IMG/VR virus record: IMGVR_UViG_3300030103_004672
Span: 1-64,000 of that record
DNA: 64,000 nt
DNA from: a virus
Direction: 5' to 3' (one strand)
Under the pieces are notes generated by a model. It saw only the letters and a program-made list of their open reading frames with translations. It was not told the DNA's origin and did not search any database. Within the stretch, counting starts at the first letter, position 1, and each line of letters begins with the position of its first letter. A program made the translations under genes and the position numbers. Below, one piece after another: positions 20,582 to 56,717 of this stretch.

Positions 20582-23410
20582 ATGAAAGAATTAAATCAAG
20601 TTTATAAGGATAAAGGTCGTGAATTTGTTAATAATCTTTTAGATGATTATCTTATCGTTACCGAAAAATTGTCAGGATCTAGTTTCTCTTTTGAAAGAGA
20701 TGGTTTTGACTTAGTATTCTATAAGGGCAATGGTGCAAGACGAATCAATCAGGTCGATAGAACTATGATGATGTACTACGAAGGCCCTATTAATTATTTA
20801 GAAAGGGCAACTGCTGATATCCTTGTAACATTACCTGAAAACTGGATTTTCTGCTTTCAGTATTTTGTGCATAATGAACCAGGAGTTGTAAAATACGACG
20901 AACTACCAAAAAATAATTTAGTACTAACACATATTTTAGTCAAGGGGCTTGGTGGCAAAATTGCTAAAGTTATAGATGACCCTAGAGTAATAAACGATTG
21001 GGCTAATGTTTTAGATGTAACTGCAATTAGGCCATTTTTCATGGGGAGACTAAGTGAAGAACAAAAGAAAAAGGTAAGAGAGTTTGTAGCTTTGCCAGTA
21101 GATGATCAGGAGGCTGCGTTTGGAACTGATTCATTTGTACAATACTTATTAAGCATTTTAGACAACGATGTAAATAGAACTACATTACAGACAAGTCTAA
21201 GAAAACCAATTGATTCATTAGTATTCAAATTCGTTAAGCCAGGAGGAGAGACTGCGTTCTCTGCAAAGGTTGTAGATCCATACACTAGGCACATAATGAA
21301 GAGCAAAGCTCCTGTTGATCTAAAAAGAATGCCAAAGGATATAAATGAAATATTATTATTAGATTTCTTAGCGTTTGTAGAAGAGCGAGGCATAAAGTCT
21401 GCAGATGTAATGAGCTCAGAGCCTGATAAGAGATATGTTGAGCTTATCTCCTCATTATTCAATGATTATGTAAAAAATCGTGGTGAATCTATTAAGGATA
21501 TGGATTTTGAGAAAGCTGATTTTGCGAAAGGTGATGAATTTAACTTAAACATTGATGCAATAAACAATGAAGACACTAAAAAATTAGTTAACTCAAATGA
21601 TGCATATGGGTCTCTGTACAAGATACTGCTAGGATCACTTAGGAAACATCGAAAGAAGCCAGGAAGTGTAATGACTCCAACTGTTGTTAAAGATTTTAAT
21701 AGCATGGTTGATAAGATCCAAAATATAACAGGTAAGGTTAAACAGGATGATACAATTAAAACTTTCAGCGATTATTTAGGTTTAAAGGCAATAGATGAGT
21801 CTGACAAAAAGCCGATTGATGAAATGATCATGGAGGAGTATATTAGTTCTTATGATGAATTTATAACAGAAGCGTTGAGAGTTCCTCATAAGGAACAGGG
21901 CAAAAAGCCAGTGAATGTATTTGTTGGCAGGTTCCAGCCTTTTACAAATGGCCACGTCAAGGTTTTTGAAGCTCTCCATAGAAAGAATGGATTGCCTGTA
22001 GTTGTAATGACTGTCAGAAGCGGTAAGGTTGATGATAGAAGACCTTTTTCTGAACAAGACCAGCAGGCATTATTCGCTAAACTCCAAAGACAGTATCCAT
22101 TTCTAGAAGCAATGCATATTCTGCCAAATGCTGCTATCGATTCAGTATTTGCATCAGTTAGACCAGCATACGAGCCAGTCTTATGGGGATATGGCACAGA
22201 TAGAAAAGCATCATATGAAGGCATGATCAATAAGCCTACATACAGAGAACAGCTTGGAGTAACAGATGAGTTTAAAGGTTATGAAATACCAAGATCAGGG
22301 CAGGCTGTATCTGCAACACAGGTAAGAGATGCGATAAAACGAGATGATGAGAAAATGTACAGAAAGCTAACACCAAAAAGCTTACATGATTCATACCAAT
22401 ACTTAAAAACTATATTAACACCAGTTTTAGCAGAAGAAGCTGAAGAAGATTTTGATGCTGAAGTTAGAGTTATAAACGAGGGCACTGAGAGAAATTATAT
22501 GGTTTTAGCCCAATCTTCAAGAAAGGAAGATAAAGATAAACTATATAATATGATCAACAAGGATCTTTTTGGTGGTAAGGCTCCATTCCAGAGAATCTCT
22601 CTTAAAAACTTTAGCAATGGAACAATATCTCAGGTTGATAGGCTTCTAAAGTCAAATCCGTCTGCAGCAACTAAATTGTGCAATCTAGGGGCAGATGTAA
22701 CTGGAATTGGGCGTGGTGAAATTATGCTTGCATACATAGTAGAAAACTGCGGAATCGGTGGAGGCTCACAAGATATTGATTTAACTCTTTACAACCAAAG
22801 AGGAGGGGTTCTTGACCAGTCGGAGCTAAAAGAGGCACGCCTAGGAAAGGACGGATATTTCTCTGACTGGAGAACTGGTGCAAAGCATAGGCCATATGTA
22901 AACGCTGCAAAAGACGATTTACAGGCATTGTACAAAGCACTAAAGGATGTTCTACCTGAACTAGATCCTAAAACGCCGGTTGGTGCGGACATTCAATCAA
23001 AAATGGCAAGAGGCGAAGGTGCTGCATTTATAAAGCTTGTTAGAGACATGGACCCTGTGGAAGTTGCTGCCCCGCTGAGATTCGAAGTACAAGTCACACC
23101 TGACGGTGAGCTTGTAATTTCTAAGGAAGGTGGAGACACTTTGGGAGACTTATCAAACAAGGCAACCCTAAACAGTTTAAAACAGTTATTATCCGGTCAA
23201 AACAAACAGAGCTATAAGTCTTTTAAAGATATTGAGGCTGAGCTCGCAGCTGGCTTTGGATCTATAATTGAAAAATTTGTTTTTGTCCAAACTGACAGTG
23301 CAAAGAGATTTAAAGGCGTATACTTTAAAAACAACTTATCGTCTGATCCTAATGAAACAAAGATCGTTAGTTTAACAGGTGGCACGGTTAAGGTTAAAGT
23401 TAAAGCATAA
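20582..23410 (+). CDS. Multidomain protein: degenerate ligase-like domain, HIGH-family (cytidylyltransferase/NMNAT-like) nucleotidyltransferase, and PD-(D/E)xK-like domain
   Basis: TEKLSG and DSLVFK; GRFQPFTNGH and VSATQVR; GRGE...DIDL...ELKE. Confidence 0.65.
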   Translation: MKELNQVYKDKGREFVNNLLDDYLIVTEKLSGSSFSFERDGFDLVFYKGNGARRINQVDRTMMMYYEGPINYLERATADILVTLPENWIFCFQYFVHNEPGVVKYDELPKNNLVLTHILVKGLGGKIAKVIDDPRVINDWANVLDVTAIRPFFMGRLSEEQKKKVREFVALPVDDQEAAFGTDSFVQYLLSILDNDVNRTTLQTSLRKPIDSLVFKFVKPGGETAFSAKVVDPYTRHIMKSKAPVDLKRMPKDINEILLLDFLAFVEERGIKSADVMSSEPDKRYVELISSLFNDYVKNRGESIKDMDFEKADFAKGDEFNLNIDAINNEDTKKLVNSNDAYGSLYKILLGSLRKHRKKPGSVMTPTVVKDFNSMVDKIQNITGKVKQDDTIKTFSDYLGLKAIDESDKKPIDEMIMEEYISSYDEFITEALRVPHKEQGKKPVNVFVGRFQPFTNGHVKVFEALHRKNGLPVVVMTVRSGKVDDRRPFSEQDQQALFAKLQRQYPFLEAMHILPNAAIDSVFASVRPAYEPVLWGYGTDRKASYEGMINKPTYREQLGVTDEFKGYEIPRSGQAVSATQVRDAIKRDDEKMYRKLTPKSLHDSYQYLKTILTPVLAEEAEEDFDAEVRVINEGTERNYMVLAQSSRKEDKDKLYNMINKDLFGGKAPFQRISLKNFSNGTISQVDRLLKSNPSAATKLCNLGADVTGIGRGEIMLAYIVENCGIGGGSQDIDLTLYNQRGGVLDQSELKEARLGKDGYFSDWRTGAKHRPYVNAAKDDLQALYKALKDVLPELDPKTPVGADIQSKMARGEGAAFIKLVRDMDPVEVAAPLRFEVQVTPDGELVISKEGGDTLGDLSNKATLNSLKQLLSGQNKQSYKSFKDIEAELAAGFGSIIEKFVFVQTDSAKRFKGVYFKNNLSSDPNETKIVSLTGGTVKVKVKA

Positions 23411-25944: not shown

Positions 25945-26409
25945 ATGGCAAATACAGATAATAAATGTGCTAATCTAGAAGTACAAGATCATCACAAACA
26001 TGCCGAAGATACATTTGGTTTAATTTATGACAAACAGCGAGAGCTCCAAGAAAGGTTAGGGTTTGATTTCTCTAATTATACTCTTAAGGACGTTGCTGAT
26101 TTTTGGTTTGTTAACAAACATGCTTTAGATGATGAAATGGGCGAAATGTTCGATGCACTTGGTGGTGTAAATGACGGTATAGCTAATGCAGCATGGAAGT
26201 ATTGGAAGAAAGATAATTCGAAGGCATCAAAAATGTCTGTTAAAGATCTTTCAGAAGCTGACCGCCTTGAGTTATATTATGAATGGATTGACGGTTTGCA
26301 TTTCTACATGAACTTTGCGATTGCACTAGGCATGACAAGCAAAGACATCGTAAATTTATACATGGCAAAGAATGCAGAAAATTTTGACAGACAAGAAAGA
26401 GGTTATTAA
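25945..26409 (+). CDS. All-alpha dNTP pyrophosphatase (dimeric dUTPase/gp56-like)
   Basis: Q.ELQ, DEMGE, WKYWK, EWIDGLHF, YMAKNAENFDRQERGY. Confidence 0.85.
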   Translation: MANTDNKCANLEVQDHHKHAEDTFGLIYDKQRELQERLGFDFSNYTLKDVADFWFVNKHALDDEMGEMFDALGGVNDGIANAAWKYWKKDNSKASKMSVKDLSEADRLELYYEWIDGLHFYMNFAIALGMTSKDIVNLYMAKNAENFDRQERGY

Positions 26410-26412
26410 TAT

Positions 26413-27816
26413 ATGCTATTAGATGTTTCGCAGGAAGACGGTAACTTGATCGTATCGTACTATAATTTTGAAGGTAAGACTAGATTTAAACATTACGAAT
26501 TAACATCAAAGGATTTGTACAATTGGTATCCATGTGATGCAAGTGATAAAAGAGCAGATCTTAAGATGAAGAACTGGGATGGTACACCAGTTAGAAAGGG
26601 TCGTACAAAGCATCTTAATAAGTATCGTGTTATTGAATACTTAGAGAACATACCTGAGCAAGATAAGAAGACTATATTCGGATATGATTTTCCTAAGACA
26701 TATTTTATTGATATCGAAGTTGAAGTAACTGATAGTTTCCCAGAACCTGAAAAGGCTGAGAATGCTATTACAGCTATTTGTATAGTAACGCCTGCAAATC
26801 AATGTGTAGTTCTCGCAACACGAGACATTCCAAAGGAGCAATATGGTGCTATTGAAAACCAGATAAATGAACACTTCAAAAGCACTGGTGAGACATTTAC
26901 ATTTGACATGAAATGTTTTAAGTCTGAATACGACATGCTATACACATTTCTTAAGTCATTTGTAAGAAAGTTCCCTATGATGACTGGTTGGAACTTTGTT
27001 AAGTTTGACTGGGCTTACATAGTAAATAGAGCAAAAAAGCTTGGGATAGATGCTTCAATAGCTTCACCCCTTGACAGGTTATTCAGCAACAATAATTATC
27101 CGTCACACGTTGGTGTTATGGATTACATGGAGATATATTCTAAGTGGGACAGAACTGTAAGTATCAAAGATGATCTTAAACTCGATACTGCTGGAGCTGC
27201 TGTACTAGGAATTAAGAAGATAAAGTATGATGGCACACTGCAGGATCTGTACGAGAAAGAATACTCAAAATACATATTTTACAATGCTGTAGATACGGCT
27301 CTAGTACAACTAATCCATAAGAAGATTAAGACGATGGATATTGCGTTGACAATATCACATATGAGTAGGATTAGTATATTTAAAGCTGCCTCACCTGTTG
27401 CAATTACAGAATCTTTGTTATGTAAAGAATTCTTAAAGCAAAACAGAGTTATGGCAACTCTTGATGAGAAGAATACAAAAAGCAGACAGTATGAAGGTGC
27501 ATTTGTAAAACAACCAATAACAGGCATGCATAACTCTGTTGCATGTTTTGACTTTGCATCACTTTATCCATCAATCATGAGACAGATGAATGTCTCTCCT
27601 GAAAGTTTTGTAAAGAAGGTAGACCCTAAACATACGTCTGATGAAATGGCTGATGATAGAATAGTTGCTATAAATGGAGTCGTTTATAAGTCTGAGGAAT
27701 CAATTCTAAAAAGGATTCTTGCAGATCTATATGGTCAGCGTAAAGAATATAAAAAGAAATCTTTCGAATTGCAGCAAAAAGCTTATGACCTCGAAAAAAC
27801 CTTACCAAAAACATAA
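26413..27816 (+). CDS. Family B DNA polymerase, N-terminal fragment (3'-5' exonuclease plus motif A)
   Basis: ExoI DIEVE, ExoII GWNFVKFD, ExoIII YNAVD, YEGAFV, DFASLYPSI; ends in the first fingers helix. Confidence 0.92.
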   Translation: MLLDVSQEDGNLIVSYYNFEGKTRFKHYELTSKDLYNWYPCDASDKRADLKMKNWDGTPVRKGRTKHLNKYRVIEYLENIPEQDKKTIFGYDFPKTYFIDIEVEVTDSFPEPEKAENAITAICIVTPANQCVVLATRDIPKEQYGAIENQINEHFKSTGETFTFDMKCFKSEYDMLYTFLKSFVRKFPMMTGWNFVKFDWAYIVNRAKKLGIDASIASPLDRLFSNNNYPSHVGVMDYMEIYSKWDRTVSIKDDLKLDTAGAAVLGIKKIKYDGTLQDLYEKEYSKYIFYNAVDTALVQLIHKKIKTMDIALTISHMSRISIFKAASPVAITESLLCKEFLKQNRVMATLDEKNTKSRQYEGAFVKQPITGMHNSVACFDFASLYPSIMRQMNVSPESFVKKVDPKHTSDEMADDRIVAINGVVYKSEESILKRILADLYGQRKEYKKKSFELQQKAYDLEKTLPKT

Positions 27817-30699: not shown

Positions 30700-31452
30700 G
30701 TGGATAATTTAAACATTTATATAGTAGGACCATGTAGTGTGGAAAGTAGCTTTATTTTTGGATGCGTTGCAGAGAAAATGACTAGCGCGATACCAGACGA
30801 TAAGAACTGGTATTTAAAAGGAAGCTTTGACAAAGCGAACAGAACTAGTGTCGAAGCGCCTAGAGGTCCTGGAATTTATGATTCTATTGATATTTTTGAA
30901 GATATTAAAGAAAAATTCACAAATATTAAAATCACTACCGATATCCACGAGCCCTGGCAGGCTGAAAAATTGAGGCACATTGTTGATATGATCCAAGTTC
31001 CAGCATTTTTATGCAGACAAACTGATTTGATAAGAGAATGTGCACATAATTTTGATGTGATAAATGTAAAGAAAGGCCAATGGATGGATCCTGGATCAAT
31101 GCGACATGTGGTTGAGAAGATACGTTATTATAATGAAGATGCAAAGGTATACATCACAGAACGTGGCACTCAGTTTGGATACGACAGGGTCATAGTAGAC
31201 TATAGAGCTGTTGATATCATGAAGGAATTTTGCGATGGTGTCATATTGGATTGTACACATTCAACTCAACAGTTAGGGCAGGGAACTACTGGTGGTAATA
31301 GAAATCTTGCAAAGGCATATGTTAAAACTGCAAGAGAATTTGGTTATGATGGAATTTTTGCAGAAACACATCCAGCTCCAGATACTGCAATTTCTGATAA
31401 GGATAGCCAAATAGACTTAGAGTGGATGGCTAGCGTGATAAATACTATATGA
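30700..31452 (+). CDS. kdsA: 3-deoxy-D-manno-octulosonate 8-phosphate synthase
   Basis: GPCSVES, SFDKANRTS, PAFLCRQTDL, NVKKGQ, DCTHS, ETHP. Confidence 0.9.
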   Translation: MDNLNIYIVGPCSVESSFIFGCVAEKMTSAIPDDKNWYLKGSFDKANRTSVEAPRGPGIYDSIDIFEDIKEKFTNIKITTDIHEPWQAEKLRHIVDMIQVPAFLCRQTDLIRECAHNFDVINVKKGQWMDPGSMRHVVEKIRYYNEDAKVYITERGTQFGYDRVIVDYRAVDIMKEFCDGVILDCTHSTQQLGQGTTGGNRNLAKAYVKTAREFGYDGIFAETHPAPDTAISDKDSQIDLEWMASVINTI

Positions 31453-31898
31453 AATATTCAAGATCCGCAGGACTGGCAATCATATACAAAGGGACAGTAT
31501 TAATGGGGCATCCTAGTAATGGATCTTGGGTTGGTAGATATAGTATTCCAAAAGGTCACGTTGAAGATAGCGAATCGATTTTAGAGGCTGCGATTAGAGA
31601 GACAAAGGAAGAGGTTGGCATATCAGTTCCACTTGAAATGATTGACAAAACCCCTTACAGAGTTTACAGAATAGGTAAGCACAGCATTAAAACAGTTTTT
31701 TATTATATAGTAAAAATTGACGATCTTGGGCAAATCGGACTAGATACGATAAAGGTACCAAAAGAACAGCTTCAGATAGAGGAAATCGACTGGGCTGGAT
31801 TTATAACATACAAAGAAGCTAAGCTTAGATCATCTAGGTATCAATTAGCACTGATAGATAACTTACTTAATTTAGGATTATTAAACCCAACTTTATAA
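31449..31898 (+). CDS. Nudix hydrolase
   Basis: Nudix box PKGHVEDSESILEAAIRETKEEVG. Confidence 0.9.
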   Translation: MKYSRSAGLAIIYKGTVLMGHPSNGSWVGRYSIPKGHVEDSESILEAAIRETKEEVGISVPLEMIDKTPYRVYRIGKHSIKTVFYYIVKIDDLGQIGLDTIKVPKEQLQIEEIDWAGFITYKEAKLRSSRYQLALIDNLLNLGLLNPTL

Positions 31899-31907
31899 AA
31901 AAATATT

Positions 31908-32087
31908 ATGATGGAAAAATTTGAAAACATTGAGACTTTGATTGAATCAGCAAGAGTAGAGGCTGAAAAATTCTATCAGAAAGGAAACAAAACAGCTGGC
32001 ACTAGATTAAGAAAACTCATGCAGGATTTAAAGAACGCTGCACAAGAAGTTAGAGTAGAAGTACAAGAGACTAAGGCTAACCTATAA
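31908..32087 (+). CDS. Histone H1-like protein, Hc1 family (59 aa; not in the ORF track)
   Basis: Translated by hand: MMEKFENIETLIESARVEAEKFYQKGNKTAGTRLRKLMQDLKNAAQEVRVEVQETKANL; KF..KGNK.AGTR.RK signature. Confidence 0.85.
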   Translation: MMEKFENIETLIESARVEAEKFYQKGNKTAGTRLRKLMQDLKNAAQEVRVEVQETKANL

Positions 32088-32112
32088 ACAAGTAGGATCT
32101 TTTTCGTATAAT
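32085..32112 (+). promoter_or_regulatory. Putative middle promoter TAAACA-N16-TATAAT
   Basis: Conserved bipartite motif, 4 nt before ATG 32117. Confidence 0.7.
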
Positions 32113-32116
32113 ATTT

Positions 32117-33199
32117 ATGGAAAAGCATACGCAGCTAAAGTACTTAACAGACTACATTAGTGATAAATCTACAAGTATAGCAATCGCTGCGCTTGTAGGT
32201 AAACTAAGTCCAAAGGCGAGTTCACACAAATCAGGTTGGGCATACCACTTAGCAAACCAGTGCCATAATGCCGGTTACGAAAACGTCACAGTAGTAACAG
32301 ATACTACCACAAATTGGGATGATTTCGATGTCGTGCTAATTGAGCATGGGATGGAGTTCAAGGGCACTTTTAATATTTTCGGTGGTGCAAATGATGATCT
32401 TTATTATCAAATAACACGGATCTTTAGTTCTGCTAAGATGTTCAGCCTTCATCATGATATGCCTTGCATAGGTTCTTTGATAGAAAAAAGGCTGCATACT
32501 GGAAGCGACTTATTCAAGACGCTAGAAAGAAAAATTGAAGAGGTTAAAAAGATTTGTGCAAACAATATTACCAGAATTGATTGCATCGAAAAAACCGACA
32601 AGCTATGTTTTGGTGACAGCCACTCATTTAGCCAATACACACCAGGATATATGACTAGTCGCCACGACGGTCTAACTATGCACGGTGCATTAAAACGAGG
32701 TCTAGACACATATGTCTATCCTTGGATAAAGTCTCTAAGAATATACCTTGGAAATATCGACGTTAGGCATCATCTTATGCGACAGCATAATCCAGAAATG
32801 GCTGTTGATAAATTACTAGCTCAATATGAAGATGGTCTTATGAAGCTACAAGAATCAGGAGTTGTGGATATAGAAGTTGTGCACACTTTACCAATAGAAA
32901 ACGAGAGTAGAGCTTTGCCAAAAACTGGATACTACAAAGGTACTCCATTTACTGGAACATGGGAAGAACGAACTGATTTGGTAAAGCAAATTAATAAAGG
33001 TATTGATAAAATGTGTGAAAGAAATGGTTGGAGTTCTTATAAGCATCCTGAGGTATTTTATAACCATATAGGTGAACTTCCGTTTGACGTTATGGAAAAG
33101 CCAAAATCAGTACATATCGCTCGAGAATACTATAGATGGGATTTAGTAAACAATCGTAAAAACAAAAAGCTGATCAAGCAATCGATGTCTTTGTTTTAA
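32117..33199 (+). CDS. Putative DNA-modifying enzyme: beta-glucosyltransferase-like N-domain fused to an SGNH/GDSL domain
   Basis: N-domain IAI...DDFDVVLI...FNIFGG...LHHD; SGNH blocks FGDSHS, LGNID and KSVH; ends QSMSLF. Confidence 0.55.
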   Translation: MEKHTQLKYLTDYISDKSTSIAIAALVGKLSPKASSHKSGWAYHLANQCHNAGYENVTVVTDTTTNWDDFDVVLIEHGMEFKGTFNIFGGANDDLYYQITRIFSSAKMFSLHHDMPCIGSLIEKRLHTGSDLFKTLERKIEEVKKICANNITRIDCIEKTDKLCFGDSHSFSQYTPGYMTSRHDGLTMHGALKRGLDTYVYPWIKSLRIYLGNIDVRHHLMRQHNPEMAVDKLLAQYEDGLMKLQESGVVDIEVVHTLPIENESRALPKTGYYKGTPFTGTWEERTDLVKQINKGIDKMCERNGWSSYKHPEVFYNHIGELPFDVMEKPKSVHIAREYYRWDLVNNRKNKKLIKQSMSLF

Positions 33200-33203
33200 A
33201 ATT

Positions 33204-34406
33204 ATGGAAATAAAAACAACCAAATACTACGACGAATATTTGAGGTATTTTAATTTAGCAAAGAGGCAACAGGATTCGAGCAATCTCGGACATGTGCCAC
33301 ACGCAGATTCAGATCTAGATGATGAACTAATGCATCACATTGAACTATACGATGTGGTAGAGAGAAAATATGCCGGGTTTTCACAGATTGTTAACGATTG
33401 TTTTTACGGATGGTCAGAAGATCACCCGTATTGGTCAAGAATGAATGCAGGTCTTTATACAACTCAAAGAAAGCAGGTTGCAACGAACTGGACTGGCAAG
33501 CAAAATCATTTTGATCTGGCAGAATGGCTTTATGTTTTTATACTTCATAGAGTCACAGGATCTGCTATTAACTATGCAACTAAGCCAAGTGGCTATCATA
33601 ACACCCTTCTATTTGATTTATGGCAATCTGATACTATAGAACAAATGTGCAAACAGGTTAAGGAGGCAACAAAATCTTTTTACACATCTGTTGGCTATCA
33701 GTTTCCAGCATTCCCAAAGCCACCTGCGCCAAAATCAAATGCTGATTTTAGCTTTAGCACAAAGAGAGAATACGTGTATAAAAGAGGCGGCGATTACTTT
33801 CTATGTGAGTTCGCACCTAGACTTGCAAGGGATATGGCGCATTTTCTTGAGCAGGGTGGCAAAAAGGATCTTAGAGAGCTTGGAGAATGGATGTTTAAAT
33901 GGAATAAGGACAATGGACTAAGAGCTTACAAATTTCAATATGCAGCTGTTATTGCCGATGTTGCAGATTGGTTTCCACAATATATCAATAGGGAATCTAT
34001 GTTTTTCTATGGAACAAACGCGGTAGAGTGCATTGGTTATCTAGCAGATCCAATAAATGGCAAGGGCAAAAAATCAGAGCCTTTTTTAGATGCAGTCATG
34101 ACAAGAATTTATGAAGATACTGGATCACTACCATATAATGCCGAGGATGTTGCATGTGACTTTATTCGTTGGATAGAAAATTACATGAGACCAGGTGCGG
34201 ATTATAAGCATATCAACATGGACACTCTTTGGAACTCATCTACAATAATTGATCATCCGTTTGGTAGACAGAGGGCAATGCTTGAGTTAGGGCTATTAGA
34301 ATCTTTCAATGGAATGACCAATCACCCATCTGATGACAAAGTTATAAAAGCAGCTGGTATTGATGTAGATGAGTACAAAAAACGTGTTTCGAAACTTTAT
34401 AATTAA
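33204..34406 (+). CDS. Amino acid:DNA transferase / aGPT-PPase-like protein (HhH DNA-glycosylase fold)
   Basis: FQYAAVIAD, YGTNAVECI and AEDVACDFIRW resemble the F...D, GPGA..GL and E..LCE..KY motifs of that family; adjacent to a PLP enzyme. Confidence 0.6.
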   Translation: MEIKTTKYYDEYLRYFNLAKRQQDSSNLGHVPHADSDLDDELMHHIELYDVVERKYAGFSQIVNDCFYGWSEDHPYWSRMNAGLYTTQRKQVATNWTGKQNHFDLAEWLYVFILHRVTGSAINYATKPSGYHNTLLFDLWQSDTIEQMCKQVKEATKSFYTSVGYQFPAFPKPPAPKSNADFSFSTKREYVYKRGGDYFLCEFAPRLARDMAHFLEQGGKKDLRELGEWMFKWNKDNGLRAYKFQYAAVIADVADWFPQYINRESMFFYGTNAVECIGYLADPINGKGKKSEPFLDAVMTRIYEDTGSLPYNAEDVACDFIRWIENYMRPGADYKHINMDTLWNSSTIIDHPFGRQRAMLELGLLESFNGMTNHPSDDKVIKAAGIDVDEYKKRVSKLYN

Positions 34407-34410
34407 GATT

Positions 34411-35298
34411 ATGCCACATAACAAACATACAGATAGTCTATCTAATCAAGATCTAAATCTAATGATGCCTAATCGTGAAGCATGGCTTGATTTAGCTGGA
34501 GATTGGGAAGATCCATTTGATGCTCCTACAATTATTGAACATGATGGCTTTAAAGTCGTTAGAGAAGATATGATGGGATTTGGATCAAAGTGTAGATTTG
34601 GAGACATCTTAGTACAAAAGGCAGCTTCAGATACTCTTGTATATGTACAGCCTCGATACGGATTTGCAGGTATATCGCTTGCATATCTTGCCAAAAAGTA
34701 CAATAAAAAATTAGTATTATTTAGTCCTAGCCAAAAACAAATATCAGATCACCAGGCAATATGTATAGAAAGAGGAGCTACAATGAAATTTAGAAGAATT
34801 GCAGCAATGCCAAATCTAAATAAAATAGCCGCAGATTGGGCTAAAGATAATGGTGCATTTTTCATTCCACTCGGATTAAGACATCCGTTAGTAACTGCAG
34901 CTGCCGTAAAAGTTGCATATGATTTAGCAGAGAACAATGGCTATCCAGAAGAAGTTTGGTCTGCAATATCAACAGGTGTGCTTCAACGATCTTTACAAAT
35001 AGCGTGGCCAGATTCTAAATTCAATGCAGTTGCAGTTGCTAGAAATATAAAAAGAGGTGAAAGGGGAAAGGCAAAGATGTGGTCACATCCAAAAGCATTT
35101 AACCAAAACGTGGATCAAAAATACTATCCTCCATTTCCTTCTGCGCTGAACTATGATGCAAAGGCTTGGGAATTTATGAAAAGAAATGGATCTCCTGGCG
35201 CTTGGTTTTGGAATGTTGGGGGTGATCCTAAACCTGAATTCGATGAAACAAAAGACAAAACTGATTCACAGAGGGAATGGGGAGAAATAAGAGATTAA
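34411..35298 (+). CDS. Fold-type II PLP-dependent enzyme (ACC deaminase/D-cysteine desulfhydrase-like; phage DNA-hypermodification type)
   Basis: VRED, GSKCRF (PLP lysine), AISTG, YDAKAW, WNVG. ATG 34411 is preferred. Confidence 0.8.
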   Translation: MPHNKHTDSLSNQDLNLMMPNREAWLDLAGDWEDPFDAPTIIEHDGFKVVREDMMGFGSKCRFGDILVQKAASDTLVYVQPRYGFAGISLAYLAKKYNKKLVLFSPSQKQISDHQAICIERGATMKFRRIAAMPNLNKIAADWAKDNGAFFIPLGLRHPLVTAAAVKVAYDLAENNGYPEEVWSAISTGVLQRSLQIAWPDSKFNAVAVARNIKRGERGKAKMWSHPKAFNQNVDQKYYPPFPSALNYDAKAWEFMKRNGSPGAWFWNVGGDPKPEFDETKDKTDSQREWGEIRD

Positions 35299-36215: not shown

Positions 36216-37025
36216 ATGAATCACAAGAAAATACATGACTTAATAATCAAAAGGGCAAAAGAGAGAACTTTAGAAGGCTACTCCGAAAAACACCACATTA
36301 TACCAAAATGCCTAGGCGGAACTGATGATCAAGATAATCTAGTACATCTAACAGCAAGGGAGCATTTTATCATACACAAACTACTATGTGAGATCTACCC
36401 AAATGAATCAAAACTCCATTGGGCTGCATTTATGATGGCAACTGCACGAGGCAAACACATGGACAACCGAGATTACCGAATAGGCTCTAGAGAATATGAA
36501 AGGCTTAGAGAATCTTTAGAGATTAGTGACGAGACTAGGCGAAAATCAGGTATTGCAAACATTGGTAACAAGTATAGACTAGGAAAAAAACATTCTGACG
36601 AAAGCAAAAAAAAGATGAGCCAGGCAGCTATGGGAAATACAAATTCGAGAGGCTATAAACACACTGAAGAAGCAAGAAAAAATATGAGTAAGGCTGCGAA
36701 GGCAAGAGATCGTAAACCACACTCTGGGGAAACTAAGCAAAAAATGAGTGATGCCTGGAAATTAAAAAAGGAACAGGGCTACGAGTCACCGATGAAAGGT
36801 ATAAAGAGGCCTGAAGAAGTAAAGAAGAAAATATCTGCTTCTAAAACTGGTGTTAAGCGTGGCAAGTTCTCGCAAGAATGGCTTGATAACATGTCAAAAT
36901 CTCTAAAGGGAAAAGCGAAGGGCAAAATATGGATTAACAACGGTGTAAAGGGTAGCATGATACTCCCAGATGAGCCAATTCCAGAAGGCTGGACACGTGG
37001 CATGCTTAGAAGAAAACAAAATTGA
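36216..37025 (+). mobile_element. Free-standing HNH homing endonuclease with NUMOD3 repeats (MobE-like)
   Basis: EKHHIIPKCLGG...NLVHLTAREHFIIH; repeated H(S/T)xEx(K/R)xxMS motifs. Confidence 0.9.
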
Positions 37026-37045: not shown

Positions 37046-38182
37046 ATGGATCGAAAATTAGAAAAAAAGTACGAAGAGTTAGCAGAGCTTAAAAAATTAG
37101 CAGGCGAGTATTATAACTACGAACAAGGAATCAAGCTCATGCTTAATTCGATCTACGGTGCATTTGGAAATCCATACTTTTATTTCTTCAATGTTGACAT
37201 AGCAGAAACTATCACACTTCAGGGTAAAGATGCTATTCTTTACACAGAAGAATTAGTAAACAAATACTTTAGAGAATTTTGGCATTTAGATACGGATGCA
37301 CACAATAAGATGGGTATCACCGTTACTGGAAAGATCAAGCAACCTGTAGGAATCTATATTGACACTGATTCAATTTACATGAAATTTGAAGAAGTTATCA
37401 AAAACTCAGACTGGGAAGGTGATTCTAAAACTTTTATACTTAATTTATACAAGCATAGATTAGGAGAATACATTGAACGCATTCTACAAAAATATGCTGA
37501 TGACAACAACGCCGAAAACTTCTTAAGCTTCGAACTAGAAAGCATTGCAAAGAATGCTATCTGGTTAGCTAAAAAGAAATACATGCAAAATATAGTTTGG
37601 AAAGATCCTGACTTACATTATGATGATCTTACTAAGATCAGCGCTAAGGGATTTGAAATTATTCAATCATCTACTCCGATATTTGCAAGGCAGAAGTTAA
37701 AAGACTTATTAAAATACATCTTTTCTGTTGAAGAGCTTAGCATGAAGGATTTTGCAGGTCGTCTTAAAGAAATAAAGCGTGAGTTCAAGCTTGCAAACGT
37801 TGAAAATATAAGTTTTGCAAAAAAGGTAAACAATTATCAAAGGTATGTTCTAAACGACATAGATAGATTTGAGATTACTAAAGGATGCCCTATCGGTGTA
37901 AGAAGTGCAGGATATCATAATTACTTGCTAAATAATTCAAATGCAAAAATGAAATACAAACCGCTTGGTAATGGCGAAAAGTTAAAAATGTATTTTTCTA
38001 CAGATAGGCACTGTGATGTATTTGCATATGCACCTGGTGATTATCCTTATGAATTTGCACCTGAAATAGATTACGATGTGCAATTTGAGAAAACTATATT
38101 AGATCCAATAAATCGGGTTATTAAGGCGATGGGATTCAAGCCATTTGATCGTAACTTGATTTATGCAGTGTCTTTATTCTAA
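37046..38182 (+). CDS. Family B DNA polymerase, C-terminal fragment (motifs B and C, thumb)
   Basis: KLMLNSIYG, YIDTDS, KKKY, KGFEIIQSSTP; ends AVSLF. Confidence 0.92.
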   Translation: MDRKLEKKYEELAELKKLAGEYYNYEQGIKLMLNSIYGAFGNPYFYFFNVDIAETITLQGKDAILYTEELVNKYFREFWHLDTDAHNKMGITVTGKIKQPVGIYIDTDSIYMKFEEVIKNSDWEGDSKTFILNLYKHRLGEYIERILQKYADDNNAENFLSFELESIAKNAIWLAKKKYMQNIVWKDPDLHYDDLTKISAKGFEIIQSSTPIFARQKLKDLLKYIFSVEELSMKDFAGRLKEIKREFKLANVENISFAKKVNNYQRYVLNDIDRFEITKGCPIGVRSAGYHNYLLNNSNAKMKYKPLGNGEKLKMYFSTDRHCDVFAYAPGDYPYEFAPEIDYDVQFEKTILDPINRVIKAMGFKPFDRNLIYAVSLF

Positions 38183-52380: not shown

Positions 52381-54117
52381 ATGTACGCAAATCGTCTTAT
52401 TAATGAGGCTGAGGTTCAAAAGACTTGGACACCTATCATTTCAGAGGCTACTGGTATCGAGGACAAAAGCAAACTTGCTTGGATGTCTAAGTATTGCCAC
52501 TACCATAACTTGAATGAGAGTGTTTATAACACTGTGCACCTCAACCCTAACATGAACCTTCAAGGTATGAATGCGCCAGCTTTCCCAAATGACCCAACTA
52601 CCTTGAATGCATTCCCAGGCCAAGTAACTGGTTCTGGTGACAAACCTTTCTCTTTGCTTCCACTTGCTATGCAGGTTGCTGCTCAGACTGTAGGTCTTGA
52701 CTTAGTACCTGTTGTGCCAATGCAAGGTCCTATGGGAGTATTAACTTACCTGGACTTCGTATACGGTGGTGGTAGAATTCAAGATGCTGGTGGAAAAGCA
52801 ACTGATTCTGCACCATTGATGATCAAATTCGCTTTTGATAACTTACAAGGTGCTGCTTTAGTAGAAAACGACCTAGTATACGCATCTTCTGCCGCGCTTA
52901 CTACAACTGTTGCTCCTTACGAATTAACATTCATTGGATTATCAAGAATTGATGGTAAATCTATTTTCCGTGTAAGAGGTAACGATGACGCCACTGCAAC
53001 TACTGCTGGTGTTTACCAACAAGGTGAAGTAGGTTATGAGCCTATCTATGATGCAATTGCTAATAACGTAGACTTCTACGATGCTGCTGCCGCACAAGCT
53101 GGTGATGTAAAAGGTACAGTTGACGGAAATGTTGAGTTAGTAAAAGCTTTAGAAGATCATATCCCAGGTTTCTCAGGTTCTGCATTTGAAGCAAACAACC
53201 CAGTTGGATCTGCTCCTACTTTCGGTGTTGAGAATATCGGTGGTGTTGACCCATACCAAAGAGGTGTTGGTGAAGCTACTCCTGATAACAACTTAGGTCT
53301 TTCTTTATTCAACAAGTCAGTTGCTGCTATGACTTACCAAGTTGCAGCTGCTGTTACTCGTGAGCAAGTACAAGATCTTAAGCAATTCGGAATCGATGCA
53401 GTTGCTCAAGTAGAGGCTGTACTTGTTAATGAATTGACTCAGTCAATCAACAAGTTAATCCTTGATCGTATCTTCAAGCTTGGTGTAACTAACGCATTCC
53501 AAGTATCTCAAGTCAATGGAACAGTTCTTTCTGCTCACTTTGACCTAACTGGAGGTGTTGGTACTACAATTGCTCTCGGCCAAGATAACACTGGTACTGC
53601 TCGTTCAGTAACTGTTGATAGTGTTAACGTTGCTGGCGGTGGAGAAACTCAGGGTACTCTACAGCGTAGAATCTTAACTAAGATCTTAGCTGCTACAAAC
53701 CTTATCGCTGTACGTGGACGTCGTGGTCCAGCTACTTTCGCTGTAACTAGCGGAAAGATGGCCACTGCTATCCAAGACGTTGCAGGTTTCGTACCTTACC
53801 CACTATCAAATACAGTTAACCAAGCTGGTGGATCACTCTACCCAATTGGTGCTGTTGCTGGTGTAACTATCTACGTTGATCCAAACCGTGATTTTGATGA
53901 TAACAAGATTGCTGTTGGACGTAAAGGAGATGGAAACTCACCAGGATTGGTATTCATGCCTTACTTAATGGCTGAATCAGTTGAGACAATCGCTGAAGGA
54001 ACTATGGCTCCTAAAATTGCGGTTAAATCACGTTTCGCTCTTGTTGAGGCTGGTTTCCACCCACAAACTATGTACTACACTTTAGACTTCGTGTTGACAG
54101 GTGTTGACTTGATCTAA
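52381..54117 (+). CDS. Major capsid protein (gp23-like)
   Basis: DLVPVVPMQGP, EQVQDLK, RGRRG, IYVDP, VFMPY, KSRFAL; follows the portal and protease genes. Confidence 0.93.
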   Translation: MYANRLINEAEVQKTWTPIISEATGIEDKSKLAWMSKYCHYHNLNESVYNTVHLNPNMNLQGMNAPAFPNDPTTLNAFPGQVTGSGDKPFSLLPLAMQVAAQTVGLDLVPVVPMQGPMGVLTYLDFVYGGGRIQDAGGKATDSAPLMIKFAFDNLQGAALVENDLVYASSAALTTTVAPYELTFIGLSRIDGKSIFRVRGNDDATATTAGVYQQGEVGYEPIYDAIANNVDFYDAAAAQAGDVKGTVDGNVELVKALEDHIPGFSGSAFEANNPVGSAPTFGVENIGGVDPYQRGVGEATPDNNLGLSLFNKSVAAMTYQVAAAVTREQVQDLKQFGIDAVAQVEAVLVNELTQSINKLILDRIFKLGVTNAFQVSQVNGTVLSAHFDLTGGVGTTIALGQDNTGTARSVTVDSVNVAGGGETQGTLQRRILTKILAATNLIAVRGRRGPATFAVTSGKMATAIQDVAGFVPYPLSNTVNQAGGSLYPIGAVAGVTIYVDPNRDFDDNKIAVGRKGDGNSPGLVFMPYLMAESVETIAEGTMAPKIAVKSRFALVEAGFHPQTMYYTLDFVLTGVDLI

Positions 54118-55352: not shown

Positions 55353-55846
55353 TGTATAAGGTTAGAGCCATAAATTTTGGATGGTACAGGCGTAAGCATG
55401 GTATTCTTCTAGAGAACCTGCCTCCTGCAAAACAGAAGCTAATTAAAAATAATGATTTTTTTAAATGGCTCGATGCAGATACACAAGCTATTGAAGTTAT
55501 TTTTAAGCTAGAGGATAATAATGACATGATGAAAGTATTTCATCAACAAGTCTGGAATCCATTTACTGAACAAATATCTACAAAAAAAGAATTAGATCAG
55601 TCTGCTAAGACGGTTGAATGGTCATGTGCAATTTGCAAGACTGACATACTTTGCAAATCAAGTTATACAAGAAAAGTAGAAAACTTCGTATGCGATAAAT
55701 GCTCGGAAGTCCATAATTCAAAAAATAAGATAGTTGATCAACGAATTATTGATTCATCAAATGAATTTACTGAACACTGCAGAAGCTTGCTAAAAAAAGA
55801 ACAAAAAGAGTTCATAAAATATGCTAGAAAGACTGCTAAATCATAG
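55352..55846 (+). CDS. Zinc-ribbon protein
   Basis: CAIC and CDKC pairs. Confidence 0.6.
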   Translation: MYKVRAINFGWYRRKHGILLENLPPAKQKLIKNNDFFKWLDADTQAIEVIFKLEDNNDMMKVFHQQVWNPFTEQISTKKELDQSAKTVEWSCAICKTDILCKSSYTRKVENFVCDKCSEVHNSKNKIVDQRIIDSSNEFTEHCRSLLKKEQKEFIKYARKTAKS

Positions 55847-56647: not shown

Positions 56648-56663
56648 AATACAGTATCTATTG

Positions 56664-56691
56664 TAAACAAATTGATAGCTAATGATATAAT
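56664..56691 (+). promoter_or_regulatory. Putative middle promoter TAAACA-N16-TATAAT
   Basis: Conserved bipartite motif. Confidence 0.7.
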
Positions 56692-56717
56692 TTATATACA
56701 TTTCTACAATATTTCAA

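Follow-up and report, generated by a model that had tools for sequence, protein, structure and literature searches.

Hypermodification of DNA is a main counter-defence of phages against restriction and CRISPR, and it is also a source of DNA-labelling enzymes. In T4, the beta-glucosyltransferase (BGT) gene b-gt lies directly after gene 42; the NFFGG loop of the enzyme takes part in base flipping, and Asp100 is the catalytic base. Among the cytosine hypermodifications, those described in the available text of PMC13326640 are glycosylations. The phages 44RR, 31, and 25 of Aeromonas carry genes 42 and 56 but lack a glucosyltransferase, and any further modification is given as unknown in the available part of PMC2993671.

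Amino acid and polyamine chemistry has been described on thymidine, where a kinase acts first (PMC8989533 and PMC5889632, available text). In the thymidine systems of M6, ViI, SP10, and PhiW-14, a thymidylate-synthase homolog leads to a hydroxymethylpyrimidine, on which post-replicative steps follow (same sources). These systems combine the kinase 5-HMUDK, an aG/PT-PPlase serving as amino acid:DNA transferase, and a PLP decarboxylase. The available text of PMC8989533 describes M6 gp52 as a pyridoxal phosphate (PLP) decarboxylase acting on DNA, and in that of PMC5889632, M6 gp55 is tabulated as a paralog of aG/PT-PPlase, with SP10 gp186 given as a fusion of a kinase and an aG/PT-PPlase.

The locus compared here with these systems lies in a viral window of 64,000 nucleotides (positions 1 to 64,000 of IMG/VR record IMGVR_UViG_3300030103_004672), on a contig that CheckV rates as only 32% complete. 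The gene under study, ORF360, and its parts are as follows.

32117..33199, + strand: ORF360, 360 amino acids; PHROGs phrog_13881 and phrog_17781; no Pfam family
32168..32584, + strand: N-terminal domain (roughly residues 18-156), a homolog of the acceptor domain at the N-terminus of T4 BGT
32222..32227, + strand: the pair S36-H37 in the N-terminal domain, nearly invariant, no BGT counterpart noted
32372..32386, + strand: NIFGG motif, N86-G90, aligned with BGT N70-F-F-G73-G74
32585..33163, + strand: SGNH-fold domain, about residues 157-349
32612..32623, + strand: GDSH, G166-H169, SGNH block I; Ser168 is presumed to be the nucleophile
32750..32773, + strand: GNIDVRHH, G212-H219, SGNH block III region and Arg/His cluster
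33107..33115, + strand: SVH, S331-H333, with the block V His and a Ser at the place of the canonical Asp

ORF360 is a member of a large phage family without a name. Its PHROG matches had E values of 2.1e-61 and 6.1e-55, and the Pfam search with it returned nothing at E <= 0.09. The family comprises 402 clusters at 50% identity, with at least 595 loci in IMG/VR and further homologs in cultured Aeromonas and Tenacibaculum phages, the latter including PTm1. An earlier reading of the window from its letters only, here called the sequence-only reading, had placed an open reading frame at 32117..33199 and described it as an apparent chimera of a BGT base-flipping domain and an SGNH catalytic domain. 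The gene is there as described, on the + strand, and all the residue strings quoted for it occur in the translation. Taken as a recent join, the word chimera does not hold, as both halves co-occur throughout the family; an assembly chimera was likewise rejected, because hundreds of independent contigs match ORF360 over its full length. Residue conservation was counted in an alignment of 119 family sequences, and the full-length AF2 model of ORF360 had a pLDDT of 96.8. A promoter-like site at 32085-32112 was the top-scoring one near ORF360, in a scan that as a whole was no better than shuffles (31 sites versus 24.1 +/- 4.4 in shuffled sequence).

The N-terminal domain is homologous to the acceptor domain of BGT. 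With hhalign, the family profile (A1) matched a 37-sequence BGT family profile with a probability of 97.1% and an E value of 5.3e-11 over 101 columns, placing ORF360 residues 18-125 on BGT residues 1-115; controls with reversed profiles and unrelated families gave E values of 0.16 to 0.57 and probabilities of at most 0.4%. Against the single T4 BGT sequence, the same profile gave a probability of 78.6% and an E value of 1.7e-5 (residues 19-111 on 1-97), and NIFGG fell on NFFGG. Among 48,161 PDB representatives searched with VIA, the best match of the N-domain model (pLDDT 96.4) was T4 BGT itself, 1c3j_A, with a Z score of 6.6 and an rmsd of 3.2 over 105 aligned residues, model residues 19-156 lying on chain residues 1-137. 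The structural match alone is marginal: the runner-up had a Z score of 5.8, and 0 chains reached Z 8. The BGT-like domain proposed by the sequence-only reading is thus borne out by the profiles and, weakly, by the top structural match; the T4 BGT strings that it had quoted agree with the T4 gene in NC_000866.

Other searches did not show the BGT match. Pairwise BLASTP of ORF360 against T4 BGT was not significant (E 0.40), and phmmer and profile hmmsearch with ORF360 and A1 against PDB sequences gave nothing meaningful. Foldseek with the N-domain model returned nothing from the PDB at E <= 1e-3, with BGT unlisted and CheY and flavodoxin near 1e-2; from BFVD, it returned only ORF360-family members at that threshold, and a 351-residue entry ranked seventh (E 0.034). 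The named clusters of the ESM Atlas held no usable match.

The homology with BGT covers about 100 N-terminal residues, including an N-x-F-G-G motif common to both. BGT residues N70, G73, and G74 are invariant across the 37 BGT sequences, and in the ORF360 family the motif has N86 in 111/119, F88 in 89/119, G89 in 99/119, and G90 in 107/119 sequences. The pair S36-H37 is found in 112/119 and 116/119 sequences, respectively. The equivalence between D114 and the catalytic Asp100 of BGT, also part of the sequence-only reading, failed: position 114 is not conserved (P 41, D 28, E 19, K 9; n = 119) and is acidic in 47 of the 119 sequences, and Asp stands at position 112 in 50/119 and at position 117 in 73/119. 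The Thr99-Asp100 pair is invariant in the 37 BGT sequences; it lies opposite a gap in the hhalign alignment and has no conserved counterpart in the ORF360 family. Furthermore, the hhalign match stops at BGT residue 115-118, and the nucleotide-sugar C-terminal domain of BGT, with its invariant G188, R191, R269, and E272, is absent from ORF360, which has an SGNH domain instead. The BGT model PF09198, which finds T4 at 1e-99, gave no match for ORF360 at E <= 0.1 or on the contig at E <= 1, and among 14 relatives one fused protein scored E 0.078. No glycosyltransferase stood among the 50 listed structural matches of the full ORF360 model. Lacking the UDP-glucose domain, T99-D100, and a PF09198 match, ORF360 is therefore not a glycosyltransferase of the BGT family.

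The C-terminal half has the SGNH fold. The best Foldseek match of the full model was 3p94 (E 2.2e-6), one of 65 matches at E <= 1e-3, and the best VIA match was 2hsj_A (Z 14.4, rmsd 2.9, 171 residues aligned), at the head of 70 chains with Z >= 8 in a list filled by SGNH proteins. The structural matches, at Z scores of 10 to 14, included sialate O-acetylesterase (6njc and 7pzg), platelet-activating factor (PAF) acetylhydrolase (1bwp), and the O-acyltransferases PatB (7tjb, Z 11.5) and OatA (6vjp, Z 10.5). The top SGNH matches were carbohydrate esterases, namely, sialate O-acetylesterase and acetyl-xylan esterases; a substrate that is a small molecule or a sugar would fit such matches just as well. 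At the sequence level, ORF360 matched no SGNH Pfam model and no PDB chain. Fold searches, which the sequence-only reading had proposed as its check, gave BGT 1c3j_A as the best VIA match for the N-terminal half and SGNH proteins for the full model, and the architecture that it had described, an SGNH domain in place of the UDP-glucose domain of BGT, is upheld by fold and profiles together.

As in the SGNH/GDSL enzymes, the block I Ser of ORF360 follows the first strand; a putative block III Asn region and a putative block V His are present as well. GDSH follows strand E162-166 of the model and is almost without exception conserved (G166 in 117/119, D167 in 119/119, S168 in 118/119, and H169 in 119/119 sequences). 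In the block III region, G212 is found in 115/119, N213 in 102/119 (with Ser in 13), I214 in 112/119, and D215 in 119/119 sequences; the block reads F-G-N-I-D, in only tentative register with the canonical G-x-N-D. The cluster that follows is conserved to a similar degree (R217 in 119/119, H218 in 111/119, and H219 in 116/119). Block V differs from that of the described enzymes: S331 (112/119) stands two residues before H333 (117/119), S-x-H, in place of an Asp three residues before the His, D-x-x-H. Judging from the alignment, the invariant E327 (119/119), four residues upstream of SVH, could substitute for the missing Asp. ORF360 differs from SGNH/GDSL enzymes, in addition, in its extra invariant residues H169, D215, R217, H218, H219, R222, E261, R265, R285, and E327 and in being fused to an N-terminal domain of DNA-glucosyltransferase type. 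A resemblance of GDSH...GNID to metallophosphoesterase motifs was considered and dropped, since the fold matches consistently point to SGNH. No description of an SGNH domain and a DNA-glucosyltransferase-type N-domain in one protein was found in the papers searched, and "SGNH," "GDSL," and "esterase" each have 0 occurrences in the text of PMC8989533.

The genes that accompany ORF360 resemble those of the thymidine systems in part. The following lie on the contig, the last of them beyond the window.

33204..34406, + strand: ORF400, a partner protein with an invariant Cys318, starting 5 nt after the ORF360 stop
34369..35298, + strand: ORF309, a PLP-dependent member of the M6 gp52 enzyme family; phrog_7093, E 7.7e-37
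25945..26409, + strand: MazG-type NTP pyrophosphohydrolase; phrog_173, E 2.9e-21
77839-78708: thymidylate-synthase homolog; PF00303, 88.5 bits

ORF309 brings the M6 gp52-family PLP enzyme of thymidine hypermodification into the ORF360 cassette. M6 gp52 itself falls in the same PHROG (phrog_7093, E 2.2e-159); direct BLASTP between the two proteins was weak (E 0.008 over 36 residues), and the PALP match of ORF309 (E 4.2e-4) was below the cut-off. An in-frame ATG at 34411 would start ORF309 5 nt after the ORF400 stop. Among 80 related IMG/VR loci in which neighbours were counted, an ORF309 homolog lay downstream in 44 and ORF400 directly downstream of the ORF360 homolog in 61.

ORF400 is itself tied to ORF360 by fusion: it shares homology with the stretch 410-722 of P0128, a fusion protein (E 3e-36), and in six representative proteins an ORF360-like half is joined to an ORF400-like half. 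It had no Pfam, PHROG, or phage-database match. A Pfam search with 14 ORF400 members found no relevant family at E <= 0.01, and PDB sequences gave no match except a TPR-like artefact. Furthermore, hhalign gave probabilities of 0.4% against M6 gp51, 0.2% against a 20-sequence HMUDK_hel set, for which hmmsearch also returned nothing significant, and 0.2% against the inositol-phosphate-synthase-like neighbour. ORF400 is thus not detectably an aG/PT-PPlase, which sets this locus apart from the thymidine systems; a hint of a link to aG/PT-PPlase or HMUDK_hel comes from language-model neighbours alone, PF18723 being present on 11-36% of members in the clusters nearest to ORF400. Complex prediction for ORF360 with ORF400 (score 0.00, mark 0.32) was uninformative for or against contact.

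Relatives of ORF360 are also fused or adjacent to an HMUDK_hel domain, the aG/PT-PPlase-like domain of M6 gp55 type. In P0134, an ORF360-like part is joined to an FkbM methyltransferase and an HMUDK_hel domain (PF18723, 43.1 bits; cut-off, 25). The 795-amino-acid proteins of the Aeromonas 44RR/31 type combine an ORF360-like part with a half corresponding to the HMUDK_hel protein that stands alone at other loci (phrog_17781 positions 376-779, E 7.4e-91). HMUDK_hel belongs to the M6 gp55 family (E 1.4e-57); the aG/PT-PPlase families were reportedly defined by Iyer et al. in 2013. Set beside the kinase fusion of SP10 gp186, the ORF360 family thus has the BGT-N/SGNH module in the place that the kinase holds there. 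No HMUDK_hel protein was found on the ORF360 contig, which is 32% complete.

The Aeromonas family members, all annotated as hypothetical, are ORF233c of phages 31 and 44RR2.8t (795 amino acids) and ORF225c of phage 25 (348 amino acids). ORF233c of 44RR is 33% identical to ORF360 over residues 20-341, and the ORF360 N-domain model matched the phage 31 protein with a TM score of 0.78 (E 2e-8). The 44RR/31 type ends in an HMUDK_hel-like half, whereas ORF400 is separate in the ORF360 locus, and ORF225c of phage 25 matches ORF360 by sequence in the SGNH half only. In 44RR and 25, gene 42 is present, PF09198 has no match (T4, 1e-99), and ORF360 homologs are present.

The thymidylate-synthase homologs near ORF360 are of cytosine type and not, as in the thymidine systems, of uracil type. 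The Asp found at the T4 gp42-type position, where the M6 dUMP hydroxymethylase has Asn, was present in 16/16 neighbouring homologs and in the contig copy. The contig copy was nearest to CMP/dCMP hydroxymethylases (5jnh, E 4.5e-27; T4 1b49, E 2.6e-17), with ThyA matching at E 5e-13 or weaker. A 5-hydroxy-dCMP synthase of RB69 type is an equally plausible identity for it; MilA likewise tops the structural matches of that enzyme (PMC13326640, available text). An ORF360 homolog lay just downstream of a cytosine-type thymidylate-synthase homolog in 15 of the 80 loci, much as b-gt follows gene 42 in T4. In a second clade of 18 loci, a thymidylate-synthase homolog directly upstream (15/18), a dUTPase-like gene (16/18), an inositol-1-phosphate synthase (18/18), a HAD-like small protein (17/18), and an HMUDK_hel protein (17/18) recur. 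In addition, 38/80 loci had a MazG homolog no more than 10 kb away from the ORF360 homolog; the MazG-type protein is possibly a dCTPase that would exclude canonical dCTP.

No convincing 5-HMUDK kinase was found in the genomes searched, which would be a further difference from the thymidine systems. The profile of the M6 gp54 kinase family, phrog_800, scored 137.5 bits with M6 and 15-17 bits with 44RR, 25, and a complete 293-kb relative (best, 16.8), and it had no match on the ORF360 contig (32% complete). It is a generic P-loop profile that responds in 14/14 control genomes, and the absence of 5-HMUDK is for that reason weak evidence. The BGT-N/SGNH protein, for its part, has no counterpart in the published pathways.

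These gene neighbours suggest that ORF360 helps build an undescribed cytosine modification, and on balance ORF360 probably serves as an enzyme in a phage pathway by which cytosine of 5-hydroxymethyl type is modified once it has been incorporated into DNA, using SGNH acyl chemistry together with partner proteins. The proposal of the sequence-only reading, a base-flipping DNA acyltransferase or esterase, is strengthened in its DNA base modification part by the HMUDK_hel and ORF400 fusions and the PLP and thymidylate-synthase neighbours, and in its architecture; its catalytic Asp is the part that fell. Under this proposal, the N-terminal domain, sharing an ancestor with the DNA- and hmC-binding acceptor domain of BGT, would present the modified base, and the SGNH domain that replaces the UDP-glucose domain would perform acyl (ester) chemistry on the 5-CH2OH group through its Ser-His pair. 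The partners would be ORF400 and the PLP enzyme ORF309 in the ORF360 lineage and, elsewhere, the aG/PT-PPlase-like HMUDK_hel protein with inositol-phosphate synthase and HAD phosphatase. In the preferred mechanism, a thioester donor would acylate the SGNH Ser, which would pass the acyl group to the hydroxymethyl oxygen; the acyl ester would then be the leaving group, as is, in thymidine hypermodification, the phosphate added by the P-loop kinase 5-HMUDK, after which the partner protein would substitute a nucleophile and tailoring enzymes would complete the base. The homology of both domains, the conserved Ser and His, and the gene fusions and neighbourhoods are observed here, and we infer from there that the substrate is DNA, that the chemistry is acyl chemistry, what the donor is, and how the steps are ordered. 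With the BGT catalytic Asp unconserved, handling of a flipped base by the N-domain is conjectural, and the replacement of the block V Asp by Ser331 speaks against the proposal. The many invariant Asp, His, and Arg residues around Ser168 (D167, H169, D215, R217, H218, H219, R222, R265, and R285) would be compatible, too, with binding of phosphate or metal in place of acyl chemistry.

The more specific proposal, O-acylation of the 5-hmC hydroxymethyl group in DNA by the SGNH domain, is a tentative and clearly less probable one. An ester as leaving group would give a kinase-independent and ATP-independent route to cytosine hypermodifications, and ORF360 would be the first DNA O-acyltransferase, its ester taking the leaving-group role of the phosphate. 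Action on hmC DNA would open a second family of cytosine modifications. The products would be derived from amino acids in the ORF400/PLP clade, to which the window belongs, and from inositol in the clade with inositol-phosphate synthase and HAD phosphatase. The family would then explain the fate of hmC in 44RR, 31, and 25, and the question left by Petrov et al. 2010, how these phages use hmC without glucosyltransferases, would become testable. ORF360 would, moreover, clearly exemplify how a GT-B enzyme can keep its acceptor domain and exchange its donor domain for an unrelated catalytic fold.

A rather unlikely alternative is that ORF360 acts on a small molecule, as an esterase or acyltransferase preparing or trimming the group to be attached, such as a derivative of a sugar, inositol, or an amino acid, with the BGT-like domain binding a small acceptor. 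The carbohydrate esterases at the top of the SGNH matches are in its favour, as are the makers of phosphorylated sugars in the second clade (the inositol-1-phosphate synthase and HAD-like genes), a KDO8P-synthase-like gene two genes upstream of ORF360, and the sodium:solute symporter gene that adjoins the homolog in 44RR. However, just one N-domain relative came up in profile and structure searches alike, and its acceptor is DNA, and the recurrent fusions are with HMUDK_hel domains and ORF400 and not with sugar-nucleotide enzymes. KDO8P synthase, Nudix, and Hc1, tried as members of the system, were rejected, each occurring in 0/80 related loci.

In a second, less probable alternative, ORF360 works late on DNA as a tailoring esterase that, instead of activating hmC, removes a protecting acyl or aminoacyl ester from a modification already in place or proofreads mis-modified bases. 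By their match titles, most characterised SGNH proteins are hydrolases, and the conserved Ser-His pair and the DNA-pathway context fit such an esterase as they fit the preferred enzyme of cytosine modification. Against it, the ORF360 homolog is the most constant member of the cassette, whereas the tailoring genes vary by clade (a PLP enzyme in one, and in the other an inositol-phosphate synthase, a HAD protein, and a methyltransferase), and the ORF360-like part is fused to a putative transferase module; constancy and fusion together are more in keeping with a core step than with a finishing step that varies.

A role in the host envelope without any part in DNA, such as O-acetylation or deacetylation of lipopolysaccharide, capsule, or peptidoglycan, is very improbable: the peptidoglycan O-acetyltransferases and esterases PatB, OatA, and Ape1 are among the fold matches, and the window holds, besides the KDO8P-synthase-like gene, a protein with a cytidylyltransferase-like domain and an MptE-like protein matching phrog_4603 (described as alpha-2,3-sialyltransferase), but such genes are not conserved beside the family, ORF360 lies amid replication and nucleotide-metabolism genes, and its fusions and neighbours are DNA-modification modules. 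Just as improbable is a noncatalytic scaffold binding DNA or other nucleic acid through its SGNH fold, as in the OSK domain of Oskar (5a4a, Z 11.1 among the SGNH-fold matches) and in keeping with the many conserved Arg and His residues of the domain, since the near-invariance of Ser168 and His333, together with the invariant D167, H169, D215, R217, and E327, forms an active-site pattern.

The protein that the sequence-only reading had singled out on the plus strand, a 360-residue product with a BGT-like N-terminal domain (BGT, T4 beta-glucosyltransferase; gene b-gt, Pfam PF09198, PDB 1c3j) and an SGNH C-terminal domain, was present with the translation as quoted. This gene, ORF360, is followed by a partner gene and a PLP-dependent enzyme gene:

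32117-33199, plus strand, ORF360, 360 aa, phrog_13881 / phrog_17781
33204-34406, ORF400, downstream partner protein, starting 5 nt past ORF360
34369 or 34411 to 35298, ORF309, PLP-dependent enzyme, next after ORF400

ORF360 was assigned to no Pfam family (top match below threshold, E = 0.092), and over its whole length it matched two PHROGs of unknown function, phrog_13881 (E = 2.1e-61) and phrog_17781 (E = 6.1e-55). The family comprised 733 proteins at E <= 1e-3 (2377 candidates, 90% clusters). Clustering at 50% identity left 402 representatives, and 186 of them matched at E <= 1e-30. IMG/VR contributed at least 595 loci, and homologs also occurred in 43 deposited phage records, 38 of them from Aeromonas, 3 from Tenacibaculum, and 2 from Stenotrophomonas, all labelled hypothetical.

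The proposed SGNH half was borne out by the AlphaFold2 model built from a 119-sequence alignment (pLDDT 96.8, pTM 0.93), in which fold searches placed residues ~157-349 in the SGNH fold. The top Foldseek match was the GDSL-like lipase 3p94 (E = 2.2e-6; 65 matches at E <= 1e-3), and the best of 48,161 chains in a structural search was 2hsj_A (Z 14.4, rmsd 2.9, 171 aligned), followed by SGNH esterases; two O-acetyltransferases, PatB (Z 11.5) and OatA (Z 10.5), were also among the matches. The motifs GDSH, GNID, and SVH, which had been read as SGNH blocks, showed the strongest conservation in the family: G166 (117/119), D167 (119/119), S168 (118/119), and H169 (119/119); G212 (115/119), N213 (102/119), and D215 (119/119); and S331 (112/119) and H333 (117/119). 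The canonical SGNH block V is D-x-x-H; in the ORF360 family it was S-x-H, with E327 invariant in the 119 sequences, and the triad, judged from these residues, is atypical. ORF360 is a member of the SGNH superfamily by fold and block I, yet it lies outside every sequence model.

The by-eye alignment of the N-terminal domain (~18-156) to BGT held under profile comparison, in the same register and with NIFGG on NFFGG. Pairwise BLASTP of ORF360 against the real T4 b-gt product was not significant (E = 0.40); the ORF360 family profile matched the single T4 BGT sequence with a probability of 78.6% (E = 1.7e-5) and a profile of 37 BGT relatives with a probability of 97.1% (E = 5.3e-11; 101 columns, residues 18-125 on BGT 1-115), while reversed profiles and two unrelated families, used as controls for the latter, gave E values of 0.16-0.57. 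N86 (111/119) and G89-G90 paired with the BGT-invariant residues N70, G73, and G74. For the N-terminal domain modelled alone (pLDDT 96.4), the best of the 48,161 chains was T4 BGT itself (1c3j_A; Z 6.6, 105 residues aligned at rmsd 3.2, residues 19-156 of the model matching 1-137 of the chain), by a thin margin over the runner-up (Z 5.8), with T4 alpha-glucosyltransferase at rank 9 (Z 5.5); Foldseek returned no PDB match at E <= 1e-3 for this model. Because of this thin margin and the empty Foldseek search, the homology to BGT rests mainly on the profiles. The suggested counterpart of the BGT catalytic Asp was lost on comparison: position 114 was acidic in only 47 of 119 sequences, hhalign set T99-D100 opposite a gap, and these BGT-invariant residues had no conserved partner in the ORF360 family. 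The BGT match also ended where the second BGT domain would start. On these two grounds ORF360 is not a glucosyltransferase; the acceptor-side domain is kept and the catalytic domain is different. Relative to the BGT family, it resembles an acceptor-domain relative, but one without the donor domain, T99-D100, or a Pfam match.

Gene neighborhoods were surveyed at 80 IMG/VR loci by phmmer on stop-to-stop ORFs. In the 62 loci nearest the window, ORF400 lay directly downstream in 61, the remaining locus stopping within the gene, and ORF309 was found in 44. No family was assigned to ORF400 by Pfam, PHROG, and phage-database searches. P0128, a fused relative of 740 aa, has an ORF360-like N-terminal half followed by a half homologous to ORF400 (27% identity, 353 residues, E = 3e-36), and six such fusions were aligned. 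None of the profile methods tried linked ORF400 to the aG/PT-PPlases; language-model neighbors alone hint at a relationship. ORF309 matched phrog_7093 (E = 7.7e-37), as did gp52 of Pseudomonas phage M6 (E = 2.2e-159), which PMC8989533 describes as a PLP-dependent decarboxylase acting on modified thymine in DNA. The second clade, 18 loci with 40-44% identity, had another equally fixed cassette, in this order:

thymidylate-synthase homolog (15/18)
DUF6378
dUTPase-like (16)
ORF360-like
myo-inositol-1-phosphate synthase, PF01658 (18)
FkbM methyltransferase (6)
small HAD-like protein with FDIDGV (17)
HMUDK_hel protein, Pfam PF18723, aG/PT-PPlase-like domain (17)

At two such loci, L080 (9998-14843) and L075 (9992-14309), the inositol-phosphate synthase and small HAD-like genes lay between the ORF360-like and HMUDK_hel genes, and the L080 type additionally had an FkbM methyltransferase, a C5 cytosine DNA methylase, and an NAD-dependent epimerase/dehydratase. 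This cassette suggests an inositol-bearing DNA base, of which we know of no description. Fusions also joined ORF360-like and HMUDK_hel domains: P0134 consisted of an FkbM methyltransferase, HMUDK_hel (43.1 bits; cut-off 25), and an ORF360-like domain, and the C-terminal half of a 795-aa protein of Aeromonas phages 44RR and 31 equaled stand-alone HMUDK_hel proteins elsewhere (E = 7.4e-91), its own Pfam match being under the cut-off at 17.2 bits. The M6 HMUDK_hel protein was gp55 (E = 1.4e-57). In PMC5889632, gp55 is tabulated among the aG/PT-PPlase paralogs, adjoining the kinase gp54; the entry for SP10 gp186 is a fusion of kinase and aG/PT-PPlase. The glycine-transfer step in vitro works without gp55, according to PMC8989533.

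DUF6378 (PF19905, ~93 aa) directly preceded the ORF360 homolog in 75 of the 80 loci (L008-L087); the PHROGs it matched are labelled "phosphofructokinase," a label that seems untrustworthy. It was not found on the contig, the longer record from which the window comes, where a gene for a 59-aa Hc1 histone-H1-like protein (31908-32087; PF07432, E = 3.6e-22) occupies the same spot just upstream of ORF360. Preceding the Hc1-like gene were a KDO8P-synthase-like gene (30700-31452; DAHP_synth_1, E = 2.6e-41) and a Nudix hydrolase gene (31449-31898). Homologs of the KDO8P-synthase-like, Nudix, and Hc1 genes occurred within 10 kb of an ORF360 homolog in 0 of the 80 loci.

One residue of thymidylate-synthase homologs decides between cytosine and uracil; it is Asp in T4 gp42 and Asn in the M6 dUMP hydroxymethylase. 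All 16 thymidylate-synthase homologs near ORF360 homologs, and the contig copy (77839-78708), had the cytosine-type Asp there. The closest matches of the contig homolog were MilA, a CMP hydroxymethylase (E = 4.5e-27), and the dCMP hydroxymethylase of T4 (E = 2.6e-17), with thymidylate synthases behind. It lies in a nucleotide cluster (76769-79680 of the contig, beyond the window), flanked by genes of the guanylate-kinase-like, thymidylate-kinase-like, and ATP-grasp types, and the ATP-grasp enzyme might add a group at the nucleotide level. Since a table of PMC13326640 also has MilA as the top structural hit for the 5-hydroxy-dCMP synthases of RB69 and DLP3, the modified base could be 5-hoC instead of 5-hmC.

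The cultured T4-like phages with the ORF360 family were 44RR, 31, and 25. Gene 42 was carried by 44RR and 25, in neither of which PF09198 had a match (T4 scores 1e-99). In 44RR2.8t (stretch L001, 4393-5916), the gene for the 795-aa homolog, ORF233c, directly follows one whose annotation is sodium:solute (glucose-type) symporter, an uncommon gene in phages. Petrov et al. (2010; PMC2993671) attribute genes 42 and 56, but no glucosyltransferase genes, to phages 44RR, 31, and 25, and call further hmC modification there unknown.

All cassettes shared a constant pair, ORF360 with either ORF400 or the HMUDK_hel protein; the variable genes were the PLP enzyme in one clade and the inositol-phosphate synthase, HAD, and methyltransferase genes in the other. 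In thymidine pathways from the literature, a kinase and an aG/PT-PPlase, in some cases fused, form the constant pair, with the kinase converting the hydroxyl to a leaving group. No convincing homolog of that kinase, the P-loop DNA kinase 5-HMUDK, was found in 44RR, 25, a complete 293-kb relative, or the contig (best 16.8 bits, where M6 scored 137.5; the profile used is that of a generic P-loop). Alongside the observed domain homologies, Ser-His conservation, fusions, and neighborhoods, we lean slightly toward ORF360 being an enzyme that acts on hm-type cytosine in DNA within a hypermodification pathway. The N-terminal domain would bind DNA and, in the manner of BGT, present a 5-substituted cytosine, on whose 5-CH2OH the SGNH domain would carry out ester chemistry. 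Because the constant pairs run parallel and no convincing 5-HMUDK was found, the preferred reading is that ORF360 O-acylates hmC as the activating step; the partner would then substitute a nucleophile at the activated hmC, here an amino acid, which the PLP enzyme would trim afterwards, and in the second clade inositol. This acyl-activation scheme is tentative and, on balance, rather doubtful.

The marginal structural match of the N-terminal domain, the loss of the BGT catalytic Asp, and the atypical SGNH triad count against an action on hmC in DNA. A small-molecule substrate is in play, the nearest SGNH structures being carbohydrate esterases. Phosphate or metal binding would also suit the site, which is rich in Arg, His, and Asp; R217, H218, H219, R222, E261, R265, and R285 around the SGNH blocks were invariant or nearly so in the 119 sequences. 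Among the papers that the literature searches listed, none described an SGNH or GDSL protein in phage DNA hypermodification, and the terms SGNH, GDSL, and esterase have 0 occurrences in PMC8989533. Action of ORF360 on hmC in DNA would represent post-replicative pyrimidine hypermodification in which cytosine is the target and the enzyme architecture is new.

The window is a fragment of the genome of a large phage that is a distant relative of T4: its PHROG matches included gp41-, gp43-, UvsX-, and gp46/47-like proteins, a portal protein, and a major capsid protein. The last (52381-54117) was nearest to that of the 462-kb uncultured phage LR756500.1 (55.8% identity) and shared 35% identity with those of Prevotella Lak megaphages. 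This likeness fits a jumbo genome, about one-third of which would be the contig (88,677 bases; CheckV completeness ~32%). The gp43-like family B DNA polymerase was split into an N-terminal gene (26413-27816) and a C-terminal gene (37046-38182) ~9.2 kb apart, separated by RNR genes, the ORF360 cassette, and, just ahead of the second half, a homing endonuclease gene (36216-37025); gene 43 is likewise split in 44RR. In addition, a 942-aa protein (20582-23410) contained a cytidylyltransferase-like segment (PF01467, E = 7.6e-5), and the only sizeable minus-strand gene (55841-56701) was MptE-like and matched phrog_4603 ("alpha-2,3-sialyltransferase"; E = 7.9e-41); together with the KDO8P-synthase-like gene, these are hints of nonulosonic/ulosonic acid chemistry. 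Outside the window, at contig 84706-86762, a PhoH-like gene directly precedes genes for a PAS-domain histidine kinase (540 aa) and a response-regulator receiver protein (145 aa).
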